From positions 7,891 to 71,890 of the forward strand of contig JAGWWK010000002.1 in the NCBI GenBank assembly GCA_018970425.1: a stretch of 64,000 nucleotides of DNA, given 5' to 3'. Shown here one piece after another: positions 99-37,742 of the stretch. The notes beneath the pieces were generated by a model. The model was not told the origin of the DNA. It saw only the letters and a list, made by a program, of their open reading frames with translations, and did not search any database. Source of the DNA: Patescibacteria group bacterium. Lineage in GTDB: Bacteria; Patescibacteriota; Minisyncoccia; Phycocordibacterales; Phycocordibacteraceae. Position 1 is the first letter of the stretch. The number at the start of each line of letters is the position of its first letter. A program made the translations under genes and the position numbers.

Positions 99-103
99 CG
101 TTG

Positions 104-190
104 CGGAGAGGAAGAGATTCGAACTCTTGAAGAGGTTTCCCCCTTGCCGGTTTTCGAAACCGGTGCTTTCGACCACTCAGCCACCTCTCC
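104..190 (-). tRNA. tRNA-Ser (anticodon CGA), long variable arm
   Basis: Reverse complement folds as a cloverleaf: ggagagg acceptor stem, anticodon loop ttCGAaa, long extra arm, T-loop gttcgaatc. Confidence 0.8.
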
Positions 191-4347: not shown

Positions 4348-4530
4348 AGCATCTAAAAACTATCCCGAGAAAGTTCCCCTCAACGTAGGTGAGAGACTCT
4401 TTTTCAGGCCCAGCTTGCTTCTAATCAAGCCGTACTTTATACCTTACTCTTCATTACGCCACAGTGCAATAGTGGTGTGGTGTAATTGCTGTGGCTTAAA
4501 AACCCGATTTGGTGTATAGTTTTAGCCACG

Positions 4531-4603
4531 GGCGCTTAGCTCAGTTGGTAGAGCATTTCTTTGACGTAGAAAGGGTCAGAGGTTCGAGTCCTCTAGCGCC
4601 CAC
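4531..4603 (+). tRNA. tRNA-Val (anticodon GAC)
   Basis: gggcgcttagctcagttggtagagc...anticodon loop ttGACgt...ggttcgagtcctctagcgccca. Confidence 0.85.
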
Positions 4604-4608
4604 CCCGT

Positions 4609-4633
4609 AAAACCGGCACTGCCGGTTTTTTTA
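4609..4633. terminator. Bidirectional terminator (aaaaccggcactgccggttttttt) serving tRNA-Val and orn
   Basis: Hairpin with a flanking A-run and T-run; it overlaps the orn stop codon. Confidence 0.7.
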
Positions 4634-5185
4634 TTTCAACCAGTTCTCGCGGTAGTAGCGGAGCTCTTCGATAGACCCCTTGATGTCATCGAGCGCGCGG
4701 TGTGTCTTACCCTCCTTCATCTTTTGTGCGGCCTCAAAGTACTCCGGGCGCCAGCGTCGTGCGAGCTCTTTCACTGCGGTGACATCGATGTTGCGATAGT
4801 GGAGATAGAAGTAGAGGTCATGCATCTGAAGTCGCATAAATGTGCGGTCGAGCGTCATCGAGTTACCACACAGTGGCGCCGTCTGTGGTGCGCAGTAGGT
4901 CGAAATAAACGTGAGCGTCTCTGCCTCTGCTTCCTGAATAGTTGTAGTCGATGCACGGACACGGTCGATGATCCCCGACTTCTTGTGTATCTCTAGGACC
5001 TCGGGCGGGATGTGGTTAAACCGGTCCATGTCTGCCTGGATCGTAATTTGTGGCCCCTCGGCGATGATCTGTAGGTCTTTGTCTGTAATTATTGTTGCGA
5101 CTTCAGTAATAGTGTCCACCGTTGGATCGACAATAGACGTCATTTCAAAGTCCATCCACACTAAGAGGTCGTCTCGCTGTGCCAT
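4631..5185 (-). CDS. orn: Oligoribonuclease (DEDD 3-prime to 5-prime exonuclease)
   Basis: LVWMDFEMT DEDD motif and overall resemblance to Orn; ATG at 5185 chosen. Confidence 0.8.
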   Translation of the reverse strand: MAQRDDLLVWMDFEMTSIVDPTVDTITEVATIITDKDLQIIAEGPQITIQADMDRFNHIPPEVLEIHKKSGIIDRVRASTTTIQEAEAETLTFISTYCAPQTAPLCGNSMTLDRTFMRLQMHDLYFYLHYRNIDVTAVKELARRWRPEYFEAAQKMKEGKTHRALDDIKGSIEELRYYRENWLK

Positions 5186-5211
5186 GTGATTTTTGCTACA
5201 CTCACCATACC

Positions 5212-6270
5212 ATGCGTGTCCTAGCAATAGAAACCTCGTGCGATGAAACCGCGGTCTCGATTCTTGAATGTTCAGGTAGCGTGAGTGGGGCGACCTTCCG
5301 CGTGCTCGGAAACGCGCTCTACTCGCAAGCTGATCTCCATGCTCAATACGGTGGCGTCTTCCCTACCCTCGCGAAGCGCGAACATATTAAGAACCTTCCC
5401 GTCATGTATGCGGAAGCGATGCGGCAAGCTGGAAACCCGACCGTCGACCTTATCGCAGTAACCCAAGGTCCTGGACTTGAGCCCGCGCTTTGGACGGGCA
5501 TTGAATACGCAAAGGAGCTTGGTGACACGCTTGGCGTACCCGTCTTTGGCACTGATCACATGGAAGGCCACATCGTCTCAGGACTCGTCTCGCAAAATGA
5601 CGCATCCTCGTACACCCTTTCTGCTCCAGCCTTCCCTATACTTGGATTACTTATTTCTGGCGGGCACACCGAGCTCGTCCTCATGCGTACGTGGCACCAG
5701 TACGAGCTCGTCGGTCGCACGCTCGACGACGCCGTGGGCGAAGCGTTCGACAAAGTTGCCCGCATGCTCGACCTCCCCTACCCCGGCGGACCGCGGATAG
5801 AGAAGCTAGCCGCTCAAGCAAGCGCACGCGGAGCGGTCCACGATATAGTATTTCCGCGACCAATGCTGCATGACAAGAGCTGCAACTTCTCATTCTCAGG
5901 ACTCAAGACTGCCGTTCTCTATCGCATACGCGAAATGAAAGATTTGTCAGACGATGATAAGGAGCATATCGCACAGGCCTTCCAAGATGCCGCACGGGAA
6001 GTGCTCGTGGCAAAAACCAAGAAAGCTTTGCTCGAAACTGGTGCACGCACGCTCGCGGTAGGCGGTGGTGTCTCCGCGAGCAAAAATATTCGCGCAGGAC
6101 TTGAAGATCTTGTCCGGACTGACTTTCCTGAAGTCCACCTCTCGTACCCTACTGGCGGTCTCCACCTCGACAACTCCATCATGATAGGTATGGCCGCATA
6201 CCTCCGCCACGCGGCCGGGTACCCTAGTGGCCCCCTTGAGGCCCGAGGGGCGCAAAAACTGGCTCCGTGA
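5212..6270 (+). CDS. tsaD: tRNA N6-adenosine threonylcarbamoyltransferase TsaD (Kae1/YgjD)
   Basis: MRVLAIETSCDETAVSIL N-terminus and GGVSASKN motif; ATG at 5212. Confidence 0.9.
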   Translation: MRVLAIETSCDETAVSILECSGSVSGATFRVLGNALYSQADLHAQYGGVFPTLAKREHIKNLPVMYAEAMRQAGNPTVDLIAVTQGPGLEPALWTGIEYAKELGDTLGVPVFGTDHMEGHIVSGLVSQNDASSYTLSAPAFPILGLLISGGHTELVLMRTWHQYELVGRTLDDAVGEAFDKVARMLDLPYPGGPRIEKLAAQASARGAVHDIVFPRPMLHDKSCNFSFSGLKTAVLYRIREMKDLSDDDKEHIAQAFQDAAREVLVAKTKKALLETGARTLAVGGGVSASKNIRAGLEDLVRTDFPEVHLSYPTGGLHLDNSIMIGMAAYLRHAAGYPSGPLEARGAQKLAP

Positions 6271-17359: not shown

Positions 17360-17402
17360 ACTGCGGCTAAATTGATATATGCGCAGTATACCCTATCGCG
17401 TG

Positions 17403-17427
17403 AAAACCCCGCGGATGCGGGGTTTTC
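17403..17427 (-). terminator. Terminator hairpin (aaaaccccgcggatgcggggtttt) downstream of rnpB
   Basis: GC-rich hairpin with flanking A and T runs. Confidence 0.65.
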
Positions 17428-17433
17428 ACAACT

Positions 17434-19602: not shown

Positions 19603-20163
19603 TTAGAACGTAACTGCGACTGGGTTTTTAGCTGCCTGGTCGGCCTCAGAGAGCTCGAAGAAGTCCATTGCCTTAAAGTTAAACCAGCCACCCACGAAGT
19701 TAGACGGAAACTGCTCGAGCGCGGTCTGAAGCTCCTGCACATTGCCATTGTAAAAGCGTCGCGCGGACTGAATTTTGTTTTCAGTGTCGGACAGCTCGCG
19801 TTGCAACTCAAGGAAGTTCTGATTTGCCTTGAGGTCCGGGTACGCCTCTGCAACCGCAAAGAGCGACTTCAAGGCTCCCGTAAGCATGTTCTCTGCCTCG
19901 GCGTGGTCTGCGACGGTTTGTGCACCAATAGCCGCGGCTCGAGCCCGCGTGACACTCTCAAACGCTTCACGCTCATGCGTGGCGTATCCCTTCACGGTCT
20001 GCACCAAGTTGGGAATGAGGTCATACCGGCGCTTGAGCTGTACGTCAATGTCAGCCCACGCTTCCTTAGTTCTGTTAACAAGGGTAACGAAGCGGTTGTA
20101 CGTTACGACGAGCCAGAGGCCGATCACAACAATACCGCCGAGAACGATATATAGTGGAATCAT
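19603..20163 (-). CDS. lemA: LemA family protein
   Basis: N-terminal TM helix plus the LemA domain (NRFVTLVNRTKEAWADIDVQLKRRYDLIPNLV). Confidence 0.85.
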   Translation of the reverse strand: MIPLYIVLGGIVVIGLWLVVTYNRFVTLVNRTKEAWADIDVQLKRRYDLIPNLVQTVKGYATHEREAFESVTRARAAAIGAQTVADHAEAENMLTGALKSLFAVAEAYPDLKANQNFLELQRELSDTENKIQSARRFYNGNVQELQTALEQFPSNFVGGWFNFKAMDFFELSEADQAAKNPVAVTF

Positions 20164-30875: not shown

Positions 30876-31433
30876 TTATTGTGCCACAGCTCGCGTAGCC
30901 ACCACGAACACCGTGTAATTAAACTTCATGTCCTGAATTTTTTCTTCGAGAACGTCAAGTCCGTAAAGCTCCGCCGCCATAGCTGAGGCAACCACCGCGG
31001 TAGTCTCGGGCAGCACGCCGCTCGCGAGATCCTTTGCAGCGAGTGCCGTGTCTGCGTAGGGCACGAGCTCAACGTTCGGCCACATACGCTTCAAATACAT
31101 ACGGCATTGCTTGAGAGCCTGGTCGTGTGAGGTGATCGCCGTTACATCGGATGCAGTCACACCCTTCTTGACGAGTAAGTTTTGATTCACTTCGATTTCA
31201 AACATTTTTTCGATAGCAAAGCGGTGCTTAGCCATGGCGTATACGGCCTCTATAACCACCCCACCAGTCGAGTTTTCTATAGGAAACACGCCACAGTCTA
31301 GTGTTCCGCGTTCGAGCTCGGTGAGCACATTTTCAACAGAGACCAAGAAGATGATCTCCGCGGCAGGATCAACGGTGAGCGCCGCCTGCTGTGAAAAGGC
31401 TCCCGGTGCTCCTGATATTCCGATACGCATCAT
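30876..31433 (-). CDS. pheA: Prephenate dehydratase (PDT domain only, no ACT domain)
   Basis: PDT-domain motifs (GAPGAFSQQAA...GVFPIENSTGG...TAITSHDQALKQC). Confidence 0.7.
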   Translation of the reverse strand: MMRIGISGAPGAFSQQAALTVDPAAEIIFLVSVENVLTELERGTLDCGVFPIENSTGGVVIEAVYAMAKHRFAIEKMFEIEVNQNLLVKKGVTASDVTAITSHDQALKQCRMYLKRMWPNVELVPYADTALAAKDLASGVLPETTAVVASAMAAELYGLDVLEEKIQDMKFNYTVFVVATRAVAQ

Positions 31434-31447
31434 GCTAGACTACCACC

Positions 31448-31915
31448 ATGACACAAGACTTCAAAATACCGAGCGAAGAGGAGCTTAAAGCGCGTCTGTC
31501 TGCCGAGGAGTATGAAGTCTTGCGCAATAAGGGCACCGAGATCCCCTACACTGGTGACTTTTTAACAAAAACTCCTGACGGAACCTTCATCTGTAAGGTG
31601 TGTGGGCAGCCGCTCTTTGAATCGACCGCAAAGTACGAATCACTGACCGGCTGGCCATCGTTCGATCAAGCCATACCAGGTGCAGTGACTGAAAAAGCTG
31701 ACGACTCGCATGGCATGCAGCGAACGGAAATAGTGTGCAGTCGTTGTGGCTCGCACCTGGGGCACGTCTTTGAGGATGGCCCGCGTACCTCGACCGGCAA
31801 GCGCTATTGTGTAAATTCTGTATGCCTCAATCTCGATGAAAGTAAAAAGCCGGCGCCGCGCGCACCGGCTCAAGCAGATACCGAAGAGACTGCGGCAGAA
31901 CCTACCACACCCTAA
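31448..31915 (+). CDS. msrB: Peptide-methionine (R)-S-oxide reductase MsrB
   Basis: CxxC...CxxC zinc site and catalytic RCGSHLGHVFEDGP. Confidence 0.9.
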   Translation: MTQDFKIPSEEELKARLSAEEYEVLRNKGTEIPYTGDFLTKTPDGTFICKVCGQPLFESTAKYESLTGWPSFDQAIPGAVTEKADDSHGMQRTEIVCSRCGSHLGHVFEDGPRTSTGKRYCVNSVCLNLDESKKPAPRAPAQADTEETAAEPTTP

Positions 31916-32454
31916 TGGCAACGGCAGTCTTTGGCGGAGGATGTTTCTGGTGCACTGAAGCGGTCTTCAAAATGCTGAACGGTGTTTCTTCGGTCCTGCC
32001 GGGCTACGCCGGAGGCACCGTGCCGCACCCTGCCTACGAGGCTGTGTGCAGTGGCACAACCGGACACGCAGAGTGCGTAAAAATTGAGTACGACGAACAG
32101 GTAGTCACTTATCGCGACCTCCTGACCGTTTTTTTCGCATCACACGATCCCTCGACACTGAACCGACAAGGCAACGATGTCGGGACACAGTACCGCTCCG
32201 TCATTTTCTATACCACTCCGGACCAACAGTCAGAAGCGCTCACAATGATAGCTGAAATGAACGCCTCTTCAGAGGGAGGTGCGCCTATACTCACCGCAGT
32301 AGAGCCCCTAACGGAGTTTTACCCCGCCGAGGACTACCACCGCGACTACTATGCCCTGAACAGCCACGCCCCCTACTGTCGAATAGTCATTAACCCCAAG
32401 CTCGAAAAGGTGCAAAAGGACTTCTCCGCACTACTCAAAAACGGCTCAGTATAG
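31915..32454 (+). CDS. msrA: Peptide-methionine (S)-S-oxide reductase MsrA
   Basis: GGGCFWCTEAVF active-site motif. Confidence 0.9.
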   Translation: MATAVFGGGCFWCTEAVFKMLNGVSSVLPGYAGGTVPHPAYEAVCSGTTGHAECVKIEYDEQVVTYRDLLTVFFASHDPSTLNRQGNDVGTQYRSVIFYTTPDQQSEALTMIAEMNASSEGGAPILTAVEPLTEFYPAEDYHRDYYALNSHAPYCRIVINPKLEKVQKDFSALLKNGSV

Positions 32455-32468
32455 GCCCACAATATTAC

Positions 32469-32497
32469 TTGACTATACACTGTTTATGGTGTATAAC
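32469..32497 (+). promoter_or_regulatory. Near-consensus sigma70 promoter (TTGACT, 17-nt spacer, TATAAC) in an AT-rich island
   Basis: Read directly: ttgact atacactgtttatggtg tataac. Confidence 0.6.
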
Positions 32498-32564
32498 GTA
32501 AATACTACATAATCGCTGGAGGTGGTGCTATTGCTGGACTCCGTGTCCACTGTGTAGTCAAAAG

Positions 32565-32599
32565 GTCAAATCTTGACGGACGGAGGTCAAGATTTGAAA
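32565..32599 (+). other. Strong stem-loop (12-bp stem tcaaatcttgac/gtcaagatttga) within the orphan transcript
   Basis: Inverted repeat read directly. Confidence 0.6.
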
Positions 32600-32611
32600 A
32601 AATAATACGTA

Positions 32612-32677
32612 ATGCTGATGAATAGTCTTGTTGGGATTATAGGTGCTGGTGTTTTGGTAGATGCCGCACGGCGCTAA
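32612..32677 (+). CDS. Candidate 21-codon ORF (MLMNSLVGIIGAGVLVDAARR) inside the orphan transcript
   Basis: ATG..TAA ORF between the promoter and terminators; no clear Shine-Dalgarno; very tentative. Confidence 0.2.
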   Translation: MLMNSLVGIIGAGVLVDAARR

Positions 32678-32694
32678 AACGGACGTAAGTAAGT

Positions 32695-32727
32695 AAACCC
32701 CGCTTCGGCGGGGTCTTTACTTTATTA
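32695..32727. terminator. Bidirectional intrinsic terminator (ccccgcttcggcgggg followed by tctttactttatt)
   Basis: Hairpin with T-rich tracts on both strands. Confidence 0.7.
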
Positions 32728-32754
32728 CACTGGCAGCCTCAACCAGAACGTTCA

Positions 32755-32787
32755 CCCCCCCCCGCCCTGTGGCGGGGGTTTTGTTTA
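32755..32787 (+). terminator. Second intrinsic terminator (ccccgccctgtggcgggggttttgttt)
   Basis: GC hairpin followed by a T-run. Confidence 0.65.
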
Positions 32788-32790
32788 TGA

Positions 32791-34359
32791 CTAGACAGGT
32801 AGCGCGACCCAGAAGGTAGAACCCTTCCCCTCGCCCGGCGACTCGGCGCCCATCTTCCCCCCGTGCATCGCCACAATATGCTTCGCGATAGACAGTCCTA
32901 TCCCCACGCCCTCGGTGTCGGCACGCTTTGCGGCGTCAGTACGATAGAACGAAGAAAAGATACGTGCTAGATCTGCTTTTGGTATGCCGATACCGCTGTC
33001 GCGCACCGCTAGCCGCACACCGCGACGCTCCGCGCTCAAAGACACATGGACGGATCCTCCATTTCGGTTATACGCAATCGCGTTTTCAATCAGTATGTCA
33101 ACGACTGACGCGAGGCGCGTACTGTCTCCCACCGGCTTGCCCGCGTCTGGGTCGAGCCGAGTGACTACGGAGATATTTTTTTCTTTCAGCGCCGAGTCAA
33201 ACCGCGCGAGAGACGCGTGAATGAGCACGTGCAGGTCTACCGGCTCTTTAGCGTACGCGTACGAGTCCTCATCAATACGCGACGCGTCCATCAGTATGTT
33301 CGTGAGCTCTATGAGGCGTGAGTTAGAGGCGTCAATGCGCTGTAGGCCCGCAACGAGCTCAGGATCACCTTTTGCCCGCTCTAGAAGCCCGGGCACCTCC
33401 CACCTAATGCGTGTGAGGGGCGTGCGGAGTTTGTGTGTCGCTATGGTAATGAACTCATACTTGAGCCGCTCGGTATCACGACTCATTGACCACACGCCGC
33501 GCGCAACCGTCACCGACACCAGAGCCGCAATAAGTGGCACCGTTATAAATGAAAGGTACGGAACGGCGCGCACTAAAAAGTCGTTGACCAAGATGAGCGC
33601 CGCAAACACCGCAGCCAATCCCCCTACTGAAAGTCCGTACACCAGCGCTCGCCGCGCGAGTATGCGGATGTCGAGCAAGTTCACCGCAAAGATGCCGTAC
33701 GCAATCGGAATAAAAAAGAGTCCGAACAGGGAGCCAAAGAGCGGATCAAGCGGTATGTCATACACGAGCGCAAAGTTAAGAGTCCCGAGCGCGTACCCTA
33801 TGAGGAGCATCAGTATGAAGTACTCGTACCGGCGGCGCTCAACACCCTGAGCGCGACGATATGCCGCAATAAGCGCGATAAAGGGCGGGAGCGGAAAGAG
33901 CAAAAAGTACGCGAGCATGACTGAGTACAGCCATCCCGCCTCAAGGTAGAAATAAAAATAGAGTTTCGGCTCTATGAGCGGGAGGAATGCCTGCGGGTCT
34001 GCCCACGCATAGATAAAAATAGCGATACCCGTGAGGTACGTGAGTCGTATGTATGAGCGCCAGGCGCTCGCCCGATTGATACTGTGCAGTACAAAGTGCA
34101 CCACTGCCATCGTGATGAACACATCAACGCTATTCAGAAACCACCAAAAGTATGCAGCAAAGTACTCGCGTTGCAGTGCCGCCAGGATATAGAACACCTG
34201 GTAGAGGAGCGTCGACAGCATGAGAAAGGCAAAAAGCTGGTTGGTCCGCGCACGCGGATTACTGAAAAATACAAACAGCCCGCCCGCGGCAATGATAAGT
34301 GCCGAGAAGGCGTTCCCGGCTATGGTCACAAATAGCTGATCCGGAATACCAAACATCAC
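32791..34359 (-). CDS. Sensor histidine kinase with about 10 N-terminal TM helices
   Basis: HisKA H-box (ITIATHKLRTPLT) and HATPase_c N/G boxes (NAIAYN, DSGIGI, GVGIGLSIA). Confidence 0.9.
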   Translation of the reverse strand: MMFGIPDQLFVTIAGNAFSALIIAAGGLFVFFSNPRARTNQLFAFLMLSTLLYQVFYILAALQREYFAAYFWWFLNSVDVFITMAVVHFVLHSINRASAWRSYIRLTYLTGIAIFIYAWADPQAFLPLIEPKLYFYFYLEAGWLYSVMLAYFLLFPLPPFIALIAAYRRAQGVERRRYEYFILMLLIGYALGTLNFALVYDIPLDPLFGSLFGLFFIPIAYGIFAVNLLDIRILARRALVYGLSVGGLAAVFAALILVNDFLVRAVPYLSFITVPLIAALVSVTVARGVWSMSRDTERLKYEFITIATHKLRTPLTRIRWEVPGLLERAKGDPELVAGLQRIDASNSRLIELTNILMDASRIDEDSYAYAKEPVDLHVLIHASLARFDSALKEKNISVVTRLDPDAGKPVGDSTRLASVVDILIENAIAYNRNGGSVHVSLSAERRGVRLAVRDSGIGIPKADLARIFSSFYRTDAAKRADTEGVGIGLSIAKHIVAMHGGKMGAESPGEGKGSTFWVALPV

Positions 34360-35156: not shown

Positions 35157-36944
35157 CTAGTTCGTACGGCGTGCTTTGGCGCGATCGTTCTCAGTCAGCT
35201 GCTGCTTTCGCAATCGTACGGACGATGGAGTAATTTCGAGGTACTCGTCCTCGCCCATCACCTCAAGCCCTCGTTCAATCGTTAACTCCCATGGCGGCGT
35301 GAGCATAATGGCATCATCCGAGCCGGATGCGCGCATGTTCGTGAGCTGTTTGCCCTTTGTGGGATTCACGGTCATTTCTTCACCCTTCGAGGTGTTACCG
35401 ATCACTTGACCCTCATACACTTCAACCGCGGGGCCGATATAGAGTATGCCGCGATCCTGGAGGTTAAAGAGCGAGAAGCCGAGCGCCTTGCCGCTCGCCA
35501 TTGAAATCATGGAGCCAGTTGCGCGCTTCTTTATCTCGCCCGCGTACGATCGAAACTCAATGAACCTGCTTGAAAGAATGCCTTCGCCCTTGGTGTCAAC
35601 GATGAACTGGTTACGGTACCCCAGGAGTCCGCGTGTCGGCCCCTCAAAGGTCATGCGCACCTGATTCTCGTGCATCTTGAGGTCCTTCATCTGAAACGCG
35701 CGCTGACCAAGGCGTTCAATGATCGCCCCCTGAAATTCGCTCGGCACATCGATAATCACCTCTTCAAACGGCTCGAGCTTTTGCCCTGCTTCTTCTTTAA
35801 TAATGACCTGCGGCTGTGACACCTGCATTTCATAGCCCTCGCGGCGCATGTTCTCTAACAAGATTGAAACATGGAGCTCGCCGCGGCCATACACGCGGAA
35901 GACGTCCGACGCACCAAAATCTACGCGGAGCCCGACATTGACCTCAAGTTCTTTCTCAAGACGCTCGCGAATCTGGCGATTGGTGACGTACTTACCCTCG
36001 CGTCCAGCAAACGGCGAGTTGTTCACTAAGAAGTTAAGCGCAATCGTTGGCTCATCAACGTGAATCGACGGGAGCGAAGGCGCAGACTCATCGGTAGTGA
36101 CAGTCTCACCGATGTAAATGTCAGGAAGTCCCGCAAGCATTACGATGTCTCCCGCTTCTGCCGAGGCGGTTTCTACGCGCTCGAGCCCGGTAAAGCTGAA
36201 AATTTTTACTGTGCGTCCAGTGCGCGTCGGAGCGCCCTCCTTCTTGATAAAGACATTTTGGTTCGGCGTGAGCACTCCTTCGTATACGCGTCCGACTGCC
36301 AAGCGACCGAGGAAGTTATCGTACCCGAGGTTAAACGGCTGAAAGCGGAGCGCAGTACCCTCTCTTGAAGGTAGCGCCGCAGGTACGTGCTCGAGTACCG
36401 TGTCGAGAAGCGGTGTCATATCAGCTCGTGGGTCATCGAGCTTTTTCATAGCCACGCCCTCACGGCCGATCGCATACACTATTGGAAAATTGAATTGATC
36501 ATCATTCGCGCCGAGCTCAAGAAAGAGTTCGTGCACCGCGTCTACAGTCTGCGCTGGGTTTGCGGCGGGCTTGTCTATCTTATTAATCACGACAATAGGT
36601 TGTAGCCCCAGCTCGAGTGACTTTTTAAGCACAAAGCGAGTCTGTGGCATCGGTCCTTCCTGCGCGTCGACGACGAGTAGAACCGAGTCGATAGAGCGCA
36701 AGACGCGCTCCACCTCGCTTCCGAAGTCTGCGTGACCCGGTGTGTCTACGATGTTAATCTTTGTACCCTTGTACTGAATCGAAGCATTTTTAGCGTAAAT
36801 AGTGATACCGCGCTCCTGCTCGAGCTTGTTCGAGTCCATCGAGACCCCCTCCTTCGCAGCGCCAGTCTGACGGAGTATCGCGTCGGTCATGGTCGTTTTC
36901 CCATGGTCGACGTGCGCGATGATTGCTATGTTTCTGATTTCCAT
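35157..36944 (-). CDS. typA: Translational GTPase TypA/BipA
   Basis: [26 protein letters not shown], and the BipA C-terminal domain. Confidence 0.95.
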
Positions 36945-36989
36945 AATAAAAAACCGCCCGAAGGCTACATTAATTATAGCATAATTTGA

Positions 36990-37742
36990 TTAAATCGCTA
37001 CAGCACGGATAAGGAGGAAGTGTGGGAACTCGGACTCGTAGCCTTTGCTGCCGGAGTAGATCTCTGAAAGGTCGGCTATGGCGAAGCCTGCATCGCGGAG
37101 CGCGGAGGCATAAGACGCAAGCGGTCGGTGGTAAAAAAAGCTCGTCACCTCGCCTTGACCCGTGCGCTGCGGGAGCGGAATGGTCACCTCAGTTTTATAG
37201 CGGTCGACACGGCGGAACGTCAGTTTTCGTCCCTCGTCCTTCCCCCACCCAGACTGGCGAGGAATGCGGAATGCAGGATGAATCATAAAAATAACGAGCT
37301 CACCTCCCTGCCGTAACAGTTTAGCGGCGTTAGAGAAAGCACTGCGGTGATTATCAATATCTTGAATTGAAAACATAAAGACTGCTCGATCGAACTTTTC
37401 TTTTTCAGGAATTTCTATCCCGTTCGGCCGGGCCACATCGGCGACATAAAAGCGCGCCGTACCGCCGCGTTTCTTTGCCTCGCGGATCATCGCGGGCGAC
37501 TTGTCGACACCGACATAGGAGTGTCCCGCGCCTTCAACCGCTTCGCGGAGCGCACCAAAGCCGCACCCTAGCTCTATGACGCGAAGCGCGCCCCTGCGGG
37601 GGTGCGCTTCGAGCGCACGCATAACTTCAGGAATCGCGTACTGCTTATGAAAGGTGGAACCGCCGCGAGCCCAGCCGGCATACCACGGTGCCATCTCATC
37701 CCAACCAGTTTTGTGCGTCTTCCGCAGAGCGTGCCCCCTCAT
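36990..37742 (-). CDS. Class I SAM-dependent methyltransferase
   Basis: Motif I VIELGCGFG and a Rossmann-fold MTase. Confidence 0.75.
   Translation of the reverse strand: MRGHALRKTHKTGWDEMAPWYAGWARGGSTFHKQYAIPEVMRALEAHPRRGALRVIELGCGFGALREAVEGAGHSYVGVDKSPAMIREAKKRGGTARFYVADVARPNGIEIPEKEKFDRAVFMFSIQDIDNHRSAFSNAAKLLRQGGELVIFMIHPAFRIPRQSGWGKDEGRKLTFRRVDRYKTEVTIPLPQRTGQGEVTSFFYHRPLASYASALRDAGFAIADLSEIYSGSKGYESEFPHFLLIRAVAI

Follow-up and report, generated by a model that had tools for sequence, protein, structure and literature searches.

The 336 bp that separate the end of msrA (32454) from the end of the convergent histidine kinase (HK) gene (32791) constitute, judging from sequence comparison, a species-specific spacer made up of about 283 bp of inserted DNA and a decayed copy of the tail of the HK gene. 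The region belongs to a window of 64,000 nucleotides, by which we mean the whole stretch of DNA that was analyzed. We are highly confident of this origin and of the anatomy described below. The complete statement, namely that the spacer bears terminators between two convergent operons and probably also gives rise to an orphan transcript of about 220 nt, is put forward with slightly better than even confidence.

Gene order and features of the spacer

The window originates from a Patescibacteria (Parcubacteria-type) MAG, and the best matches of its MsrA protein (NCBI MBU6310581.1) are all to Patescibacteria MAGs. msrB and msrA (PMSR; 31915-32454) are located on the plus strand. The HisKA_7TM histidine kinase gene (32791-34359), followed by a stand-alone receiver gene, is located on the minus strand and is convergent with msrA.

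The initial annotation described the region between them as an island of markedly lower GC content containing a TTGACT-17-TATAAC promoter, a perfect 12-bp hairpin, a 21-codon open reading frame (ORF) and two intrinsic terminators. All of these elements were recovered, at the coordinates given in the following sections. The dip in GC content is also real, but modest, and the original wording overstates it: the island has 46% GC (39-45% in its core) compared with 54.5% for coding sequence, while values between 42% and 58% are found in the remaining intergenic sequences of the window.

Origin of the spacer

The order of the neighboring genes (amine oxidase, msrB and msrA, then the convergent HK and RR genes, with BipA further on) is kept in three relatives, L086, L089 and L098, whose MsrA proteins are 76%, 74% and 73% identical to that of the window, respectively. 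In all three, msrA and HK overlap tail to tail, by 27, 17 and 14 nt, respectively, and the spacer is absent, indicating that the island is a lineage-specific gain. The MsrA protein is collinear with its relatives through '...LLK'; its last four codons and stop (NGSV*) already lie in lineage-specific sequence. Based on the junctions with L086, L089 and L098, the insert was delimited to 32442-32724 on the plus strand (about 283 nt, with boundaries accurate to a few nucleotides), and it holds the promoter, the hairpin, the short ORF and the first terminator, T1. The databases contain no relative closer than 76% MsrA identity, and the 90% cluster has a single member.

Protein and DNA alignments identify the remainder of the spacer (32725-32790, minus strand) as an in-frame tandem copy of the last 22 HK codons plus stop that has since decayed. 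Its minus-strand reading, S*TKPPPQGGGG*TFWLRLPV*, was compared with the HK C-terminus, KMGAESPGEGKGSTFWVALPV*; the segment PQGGGG*TFWLRLPV* aligns with PGEGKGSTFWVALPV*, and the distance from the stop of the relic to that of HK is exactly 66 nt, or 22 codons. A tblastn comparison gave E = 0.002 over the last 15 residues, at about 60% amino-acid identity. Local alignment at the DNA level yielded p = 0.004 against the 3' end of the window's own HK gene and p = 0.008 against that of L089, and none of 500 shuffles scored as high against that of L086. The relic can be aligned to four HK 3' ends, and the alignments start precisely at the stop codon. With two internal stops and a divergence of roughly 35%, 32725-32790 displays the significant, collinear and in-frame similarity to an adjacent parent that is expected of a tandem-duplication pseudogene.

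These comparisons leave the claims of the initial annotation unevenly placed. The conservation of hairpin or ORF for which it proposed to look in relatives does not exist in the three that keep the gene order, as the island is missing from all of them. Its fallback, the remnant of an insertion, turns out to be the best-supported part, given the absence of the island from three of three syntenic relatives and the duplicate of the HK 3' end on the right. In the form of an orphan insert plus a relic of an HK 3' duplication, this reading appears largely right.

Several sources of the insert were considered. A derivation as a 238-nt duplicate of the msrA 3' end was rejected, as the CCGCAC..AAAACGG repeat gave p = 0.08-0.22 and global alignment was no better than for shuffled sequences. 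A tblastn comparison of every protein encoded in the window with the insert yielded nothing below E = 0.01. The island might also have been left behind or carried in by a mobile or recombining element, either MITE-like with a target-site duplication or a lox-like site with 12-bp arms and an 8-bp spacer. Such an origin would account for a sequence that is inserted relative to three relatives and carries a promoter atypical for the genome, and the geometry of the hairpin resembles that of tyrosine-recombinase core sites. Moreover, the 10-mer TGACTANACA occurs three times in the 64-kb window, where 0.38 occurrences are expected, and all copies are in or at the edge of the island: at 32470 (+), at 32551-32560 (-) and at 32788 (+), the last overlapping the HK stop. 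However, blastn-short and nhmmer found no second copy of the island in the 64-kb window, and blastn, nhmmer and tblastn found none in 80 msrA loci of GTDB species representatives, so that the multi-copy character of a MITE is not seen in either set. Distant blastn searches of phages and plasmids matched only the generic AAACCCCGC..GCGGGGTTT terminator (T1), and a scan for the exact hairpin sequence, with the loop left free, returned 0 matches from viral and 0 from metagenome contigs. Terminal inverted repeats were not found either, the neighboring genes carry no transposase or integrase domain, and T1 is of native style. Direct 10-mers, TGACTATACA and TGACTAGACA, do lie near the edges of the island. 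The left one, however, lies within the insert, some 30 nt away from its inferred boundary (about 32441), and the pattern is post hoc; the TGACTANACA pair was therefore not treated as a target-site duplication. We assign a mobile element only a very slight chance, and the TGACTANACA repeats could be a trace of the construction of the spacer.

Terminators T1 and T2

Both terminators of the spacer consist of a GC-rich stem-loop followed by a U-rich tract, as expected of intrinsic terminators. T1 (32685-32728, both strands) has a GC stem at 32697-32714 comprising seven pairs (six of them GC), a tetraloop and the tail CTTTACTTTA. Its flanking arms, GTAAGTAAGTAAA and TTTACTTTATTAC, are A-rich and T-rich, respectively, and complementary to each other, so T1 is predicted to be able to act in both directions. 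The same design is present at the convergent junctions at 1631-1675 and 17400-17429 of the window. As a terminator scan detected no other plus-strand terminator between msrA and T1, the insert would form at least the 3'UTR of msrBA. T1 is most likely the shared bidirectional terminator of the msrBA and HK-RR operons. Terminator-like sites amount to six in 1.6 kb, compared with 1.5 expected.

T2 (32759-32788) lies inside the HK relic and is composed of an 8-bp all-GC stem (32759-32778, CCCCCGCC/GGCGGGGG) and the tail TTTTGTTTAT. The stem is the counterpart of the GEGKG-coding stretch in the functional HK copy, and T2 has a C9 run ahead of it at 32755-32763. Since the minus-strand version has no U tail, T2 is expected to work on the plus strand only. 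Given its location, one of the 'twin terminators' of the initial annotation is a hairpin that developed within a pseudogenised piece of the HK gene. Its birth in the relic took several substitutions, which hints at real pressure from plus-strand transcription and hence at an active promoter.

Folding of T2 only marginally beats that of shuffled sequences (z = -1.8, with 10 of 200 shuffles as stable). Of the two strong intrinsic terminators initially annotated, both are thus present, but the second is weaker in this test. The pair does not hold up as the signature of a single transcription unit either, T1 being common to two convergent operons and T2 belonging to the HK relic.

Promoter

The sigma-70-like promoter on the plus strand (32469-32497) is composed of a -35 hexamer TTGACT (32469-32474) and a -10 hexamer TATAAC (32492-32497) separated by 17 nt, with a predicted start near 32504-32505. 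The near-perfect sigma70 promoter of the initial annotation is thus confirmed as a motif, with hexamers near consensus and a spacing within 16-18 nt, and it is unique in the 64 kb: TTGACW-N16-18-TATAAY occurs once in the window compared with 0.04 times expected from shuffles, albeit for a pattern picked after seeing the site. A promoter scan that demanded T at the last -10 position missed the TATAAC site for that reason.

Compared with the promoters native to this genome, the -35 box is unusual and the -10 box is average, the latter being strong in the allele of a sister strain. Native promoters hardly show a -35 signal (on average 2.7 of 6 matches versus 2.4 for background), while the -35 of the island has 5 of 6, a value reached by about 1% of background positions. 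Native -10 boxes read (g/t)g(n)TATACT, TACAAT or TATAGT. Scored with a position weight matrix built from 24 native sites, the -10 of the window (TATAAC, with C at the critical last position) ranks 381 among 128,000 positions, and the TATAAT allele of a sister strain (GGTGTATAAT) ranks 30. The island sequence, GGTGTATAAC, has the same context, GGTGTATA, as the tRNA-Val promoter, and the hexamer TATAAC is also used at tRNA-Ser. As a rough estimate, the accidental origin of such a -35/-10 pair in the island has a chance of a few percent. We consider it moderately probable that the promoter fires.

In DNA as old as the HK relic, chance alone would hardly have preserved a hairpin of 12 perfect base pairs together with a -35/-10 pair so near to consensus, which speaks against an orphan without function. 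Either selection may act on hairpin and promoter, or the insertion may postdate the relic.

The promoter spacer also contains an operator-like 7-bp palindrome, TATACAC-N8-GTGTATA (32474-32495). Its use as a shared operator was discarded, as the window holds no second good copy.

Variation in a sister strain

A contig of the sister strain L005, obtained from another sample, could be compared over 1,279 nt. It differs from the window at 11 positions, 10 of which are inside the island. Seven of the 11 differences fall within 26 nt (32530-32555, plus strand), forming a hypervariable patch that looks like the result of a single event of recombination or templated mutation. The predicted 5' fold differs between the two alleles of this patch. 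The other changes in the island convert TATAAC to TATAAT, improve the U-tract of T1 (GGGGTC to GGGGTT) and affect position 32456.

The same patch eliminates one arm of an inverted repeat of 14 nt (32469-32482/32548-32561) that had suggested an invertible promoter; this possibility was dropped, L005 being collinear with the window and lacking the right arm.

Hairpin, ORF and T1 stem are identical in L005. Given a background divergence of about 0.1-0.25%, less than one change is expected in the segment of about 157 nt that comprises hairpin, ORF and T1 stem, and the invariance of hairpin and ORF is therefore not evidence of selection.

The predicted transcript

The perfect 12-bp stem-loop of the initial annotation is present at 32566-32597, where 32566-32577 pairs with 32586-32597 around the 8-nt loop GGACGGAG. 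The predicted RNA of 226 nt folds better than shuffled sequences (z = -4.4). Analyzed by segment, this is clear for the hairpin (z about -4.9) and T1 (z about -3.9) only, and the 5' domain and the ORF region show no more structure than shuffled sequence in the same test, indicating that the signal of the whole RNA is due to the hairpin and the terminators.

Rfam was searched by E-value with 1.6 kb and at gathering threshold with the whole window. No family reached the gathering threshold for the island, and the whole window yielded tRNAs only; the Rfam search suggested in the initial annotation thus came back negative. The best sub-threshold scores were those of anti-hemB (24 bits versus 49.5, matching the terminators only), RsmY (20.7 versus 57) and istR (16.8 versus 45). 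In the island, ARAGORN detected neither a tRNA nor a tmRNA.

A functional, stand-alone, trans-acting small RNA (sRNA) of about 220 nt, with its own promoter, a GGAGG-loop hairpin and an end at T1, that regulates mRNAs or sequesters a protein, would fit part of these data. The promoter is plausible, hairpin and terminator are strong and accompanied by the folding score of the whole transcript, and the hairpin is the same in both strains. In addition, GGAGGT occurs twice in the transcript compared with about 0.1 times expected, and there is the weak RsmY-like match. On the other hand, that match is far below the family threshold, folding better than shuffled sequence is confined to the hairpin and the terminators, and the island is absent from all relatives, while sequence and fold of the 5' domain differ between two strains of one species. 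The six GGA motifs, where about three are expected, are not a significant excess either. We consider a functional trans-acting sRNA rather unlikely. A more specific version, a sponge of the CsrA/RsmY type, was rejected on the GGA count.

The stand-alone sRNA or micropeptide unit of about 200 nt that had initially been proposed is plausible, the promoter and the distance of about 220 nt from start to T1 being compatible with it. Unsupported is its standing as a functional unit: no homologue, family, covariation or sign of selection emerged from the searches described here.

The 21-codon ORF

The ORF at 32612-32677 on the plus strand is a candidate coding sequence for MLMNSLVGIIGAGVLVDAARR. As annotated initially, it is short and no Shine-Dalgarno (SD) sequence is found upstream of it. 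As an argument the missing SD is uninformative, since even in a loose test only 6 of 51 genes in this genome have an SD site; the genome barely uses them, and their absence at the ORF says nothing about its translation. Most genes instead have a TAnnnT box located 6-9 nt upstream of the ATG, a layout indicative of leaderless mRNAs. The island transcript would not be leaderless, as no start codon is found near the predicted start. The region before the ATG is A/U-rich and predicted to be unpaired.

The transcript could accordingly be viewed as an mRNA for a 21-aa membrane micropeptide, acting either as a type I toxin controlled by an antisense RNA of about 70 nt or as a modulator of the 7TM HK. 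A published screening rule for short type I toxins calls for at least 10 hydrophobic residues in a 15-residue stretch (PMC2887945). The peptide, with 10 of 15 hydrophobic residues and the charged C-terminus DAARR, passes, but so do 55 of 445 (12%) random short ORFs of the window, and its hydrophobic stretch is short, at about 11-16 residues.

A matching antisense RNA can be drawn as well. It would run from a minus-strand TATAAT inside the ORF (32641-32636), a weak candidate for an antisense promoter, to the hairpin, which on the minus strand is followed by CCTTTTGACT and is flagged as terminator-like, and its unstructured 5' tail of 33 nt would cover the start of the ORF. Yet this TATAAT, scored with native context, ranks 606 of 128,000, and about three such sites are expected per island by chance, which places the antisense -10 box at chance level for a region of this size. 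SD-less initiation at an unpaired, A/U-rich site would be in keeping with the norm of the genome. However, the peptide matches no known toxin or antitoxin family, has no tandem copy, paralogue or pattern-search homologue, and the HK genes of the relatives do without it. A search of metagenomes with a degenerate DNA pattern for LVGIIGAGVLV gave a single match, which lies antisense within a 385-aa gene and was dismissed as chance. The toxin-like peptide of the initial annotation finds no support in these tests, its hydrophobicity being shared by random short ORFs and the candidate antisense promoter scoring at chance level. We regard the micropeptide mRNA, in either form, as improbable.

The island might combine both roles as a newborn gene, specifying a dual-function RNA of about 220 nt and a 21-aa membrane peptide (an antisense-checked toxin or an HK modulator) under a strain-tuned -10 switch. 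In such a scheme the antisense RNA would end at the 12-bp hairpin and the T/C switch would be the last base of the -10. We hold this to be very improbable.

Alternatively, the ORF could be what is left of a longer gene, either the N-terminus of a Rossmann-fold enzyme (IIGAG) or an interrupted coding sequence of some 55 codons that shares the frame of the ORF. Within the peptide, GIIGAGV and a subsequent AARR resemble dinucleotide-binding N-termini. Furthermore, a stop in this frame is replaced by Gln in L005, opening 24 codons after a GGAGG motif. Nevertheless, Pfam returned no match at E ≤ 10 to either the peptide or the translations in six frames, PDB sequences gave no match to the peptide at E ≤ 10, and no similarity to any window-encoded protein was found. 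The L005 differences are spread 3-3-1 over the codon positions and thus carry no coding signal. A gene remnant is given only a minimal chance.

Proposed history of the spacer and implications

The following account of the whole island, with a spacer built from an insert and a duplication, is the one we favor. An insert of about 283 nt (32442-32724) would have provided msrA with its last four codons and stop and brought in the promoter, the hairpin, the ORF and T1, while an in-frame tandem duplication of 66 nt of the HK 3' end (32725-32790) would have decayed to the relic that now contains T2. The resulting spacer would have split two genes that ancestrally overlapped tail to tail. T1 would serve as common bidirectional terminator for the convergent msrBA and HK-RR operons, and T2 as a plus-strand back-up that prevents read-through into the HK gene. 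The insert as a whole would then act, at a minimum, as the msrBA 3'UTR. In addition, the promoter probably drives an RNA of about 220 nt (about 285 nt on reading to T2), which would share T1 with msrBA and is most likely a young, non-conserved orphan RNA without established function.

If correct, the finding is mostly ordinary, in that it describes how a terminator-bearing spacer arises between formerly overlapping genes. It would also show a terminator evolving inside a decaying gene fragment. Small RNAs, small proteins and toxin-antitoxin modules are, to our knowledge, barely characterized in Patescibacteria. Should the transcript or the peptide prove functional, the island, being confined to one species and occurring with two alleles of its promoter, would offer a clean example of recent gene birth. 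The largely leaderless and nearly SD-free organization of the genome is probably more useful for the annotation of such genomes than the island itself.

Comparison with known systems

Small RNAs that are embedded in a 3'UTR and have their own promoter are known from enterobacteria, for example DapZ and MicL. The promoter of the island is likewise positioned just after the upstream stop, and its transcript would share the terminator of the gene. DapZ and MicL are enterobacterial, whereas the island comes from a Patescibacteria MAG and is known here from its sequence.

Like the type I toxin-antitoxin loci Ibs/Sib and AapA1/IsoA1, the island is a long intergenic region in which a short hydrophobic ORF ends in a charged C-terminus, and its possible antisense RNA is predicted to overlap the start codon in the same way. 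It differs from them in showing no family homology, tandem copy or convincing antisense promoter, in the very short hydrophobic stretch of its peptide and in being a single-species orphan.

With the bidirectional Rho-independent terminators found between convergent operons, T1 shares the GC stem, the tetraloop, the A-rich and T-rich flanks and the position, while T2 corresponds to a classic plus-strand intrinsic terminator. The differences are that the relatives do without spacer or terminator at the msrA/HK junction and that T2 originated within the duplicate, now decayed, of a coding 3' end. As in other pseudogenised 3'-end tandem duplications, the HK relic immediately follows the functional stop and is degraded; in contrast to these, it forms a strong terminator hairpin for the opposite strand.

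Gene starts and promoters across the window

Most genes in the window carry a TAnnnT box (TATACT, TACAAT or TAGACT) 6-9 nt 5' of the ATG, as exemplified by the gene starts at 20163, 31448, 34739, 39297, 42476, 49757 and 53677. A -35 signal is near absent from the predicted promoters of the window, which use the -10 box alone. Moreover, most genes lack a Shine-Dalgarno (SD) site, only 6 of the 51 being positive by a loose test. The position of the TAnnnT box close to the ATG, together with the scarcity of SD sites, suggests a genome that, judged from sequence, looks largely leaderless and relies on -10-only promoters.

In contrast to most window genes, bipA/typA has a leader, located upstream of the gene on the minus strand (36944-37000). 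TATAAT comes first, followed by a small stem-loop (GCC-TTCG-GGC) and then seven consecutive T residues immediately 5' of the ATG, an arrangement that could be an attenuator-like element.

SD-like motifs and strain differences in the island

The island, the spacer between msrA and the convergent histidine kinase (HK) gene, has two plus-strand copies of GGAGGT (32518-32523 and 32582-32587), against approximately 0.1 expected. This hexamer is a perfect complement of the anti-SD sequence, and the host genome seldom uses SD sites. One of the copies spans the loop and the 3' arm of the 12-bp hairpin of the island (32566-32597). Among the intergenic regions of the window, the sole other long AT-containing perfect hairpin is a 14-bp one (CCTCTCAGAATAGC / GCTATTCTGAGAGG, 5-nt loop) at 65-97, adjoining tRNA-Ser (103-190, minus strand).

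Comparison of window positions 32530-32555 with positions 1085-1110 of L005, a sister-strain contig from another sample, revealed 7 substitutions in 26 nt; elsewhere, the strains differ by about 0.1%. This patch is possibly the product of a single templated or recombination event. Of the two 14-nt inverted repeat arms (32469-32482 / 32548-32561), L005 has lost the right one through it, and a change of TAG to CAG leaves a 24-codon ORF open in L005 downstream of a GGAGG motif. A second, small cluster, with 3 SNPs within 20 nt relative to L004 of the sister strain, falls in the 3'-terminal part of the gene for prephenate dehydratase (30938-30957).

Within the HK relic, the decayed duplicate of the HK 3' end, a C9 run (32755-32763) overlaps the stretch in which several contigs end (about 32761-32790). 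The HK-side contigs of runs SRR32006836 and SRR32006834 break off at about 32761, adjoining the C9 run, while the msrA-side contigs end at 32762, within the run (SRR32006836), or extend to 32790 (SRR32006834). An uninterrupted contig across this region was obtained in SRR32006835 only. Variable length of the homopolymer, or a drop in coverage at the GC hairpin, may account for these contig ends.

The closest syntenic relative

In L086, the closest relative with a syntenic neighbourhood, a Y1-transposase-like gene (1515-2177; weak PF01797 match) is found between the AhpC and amine oxidase genes. The 7TM sensor region of the window HK has no Pfam-matched counterpart in the L086 HK (4517-5302), which measures 261 aa as compared with 522 aa in the window.
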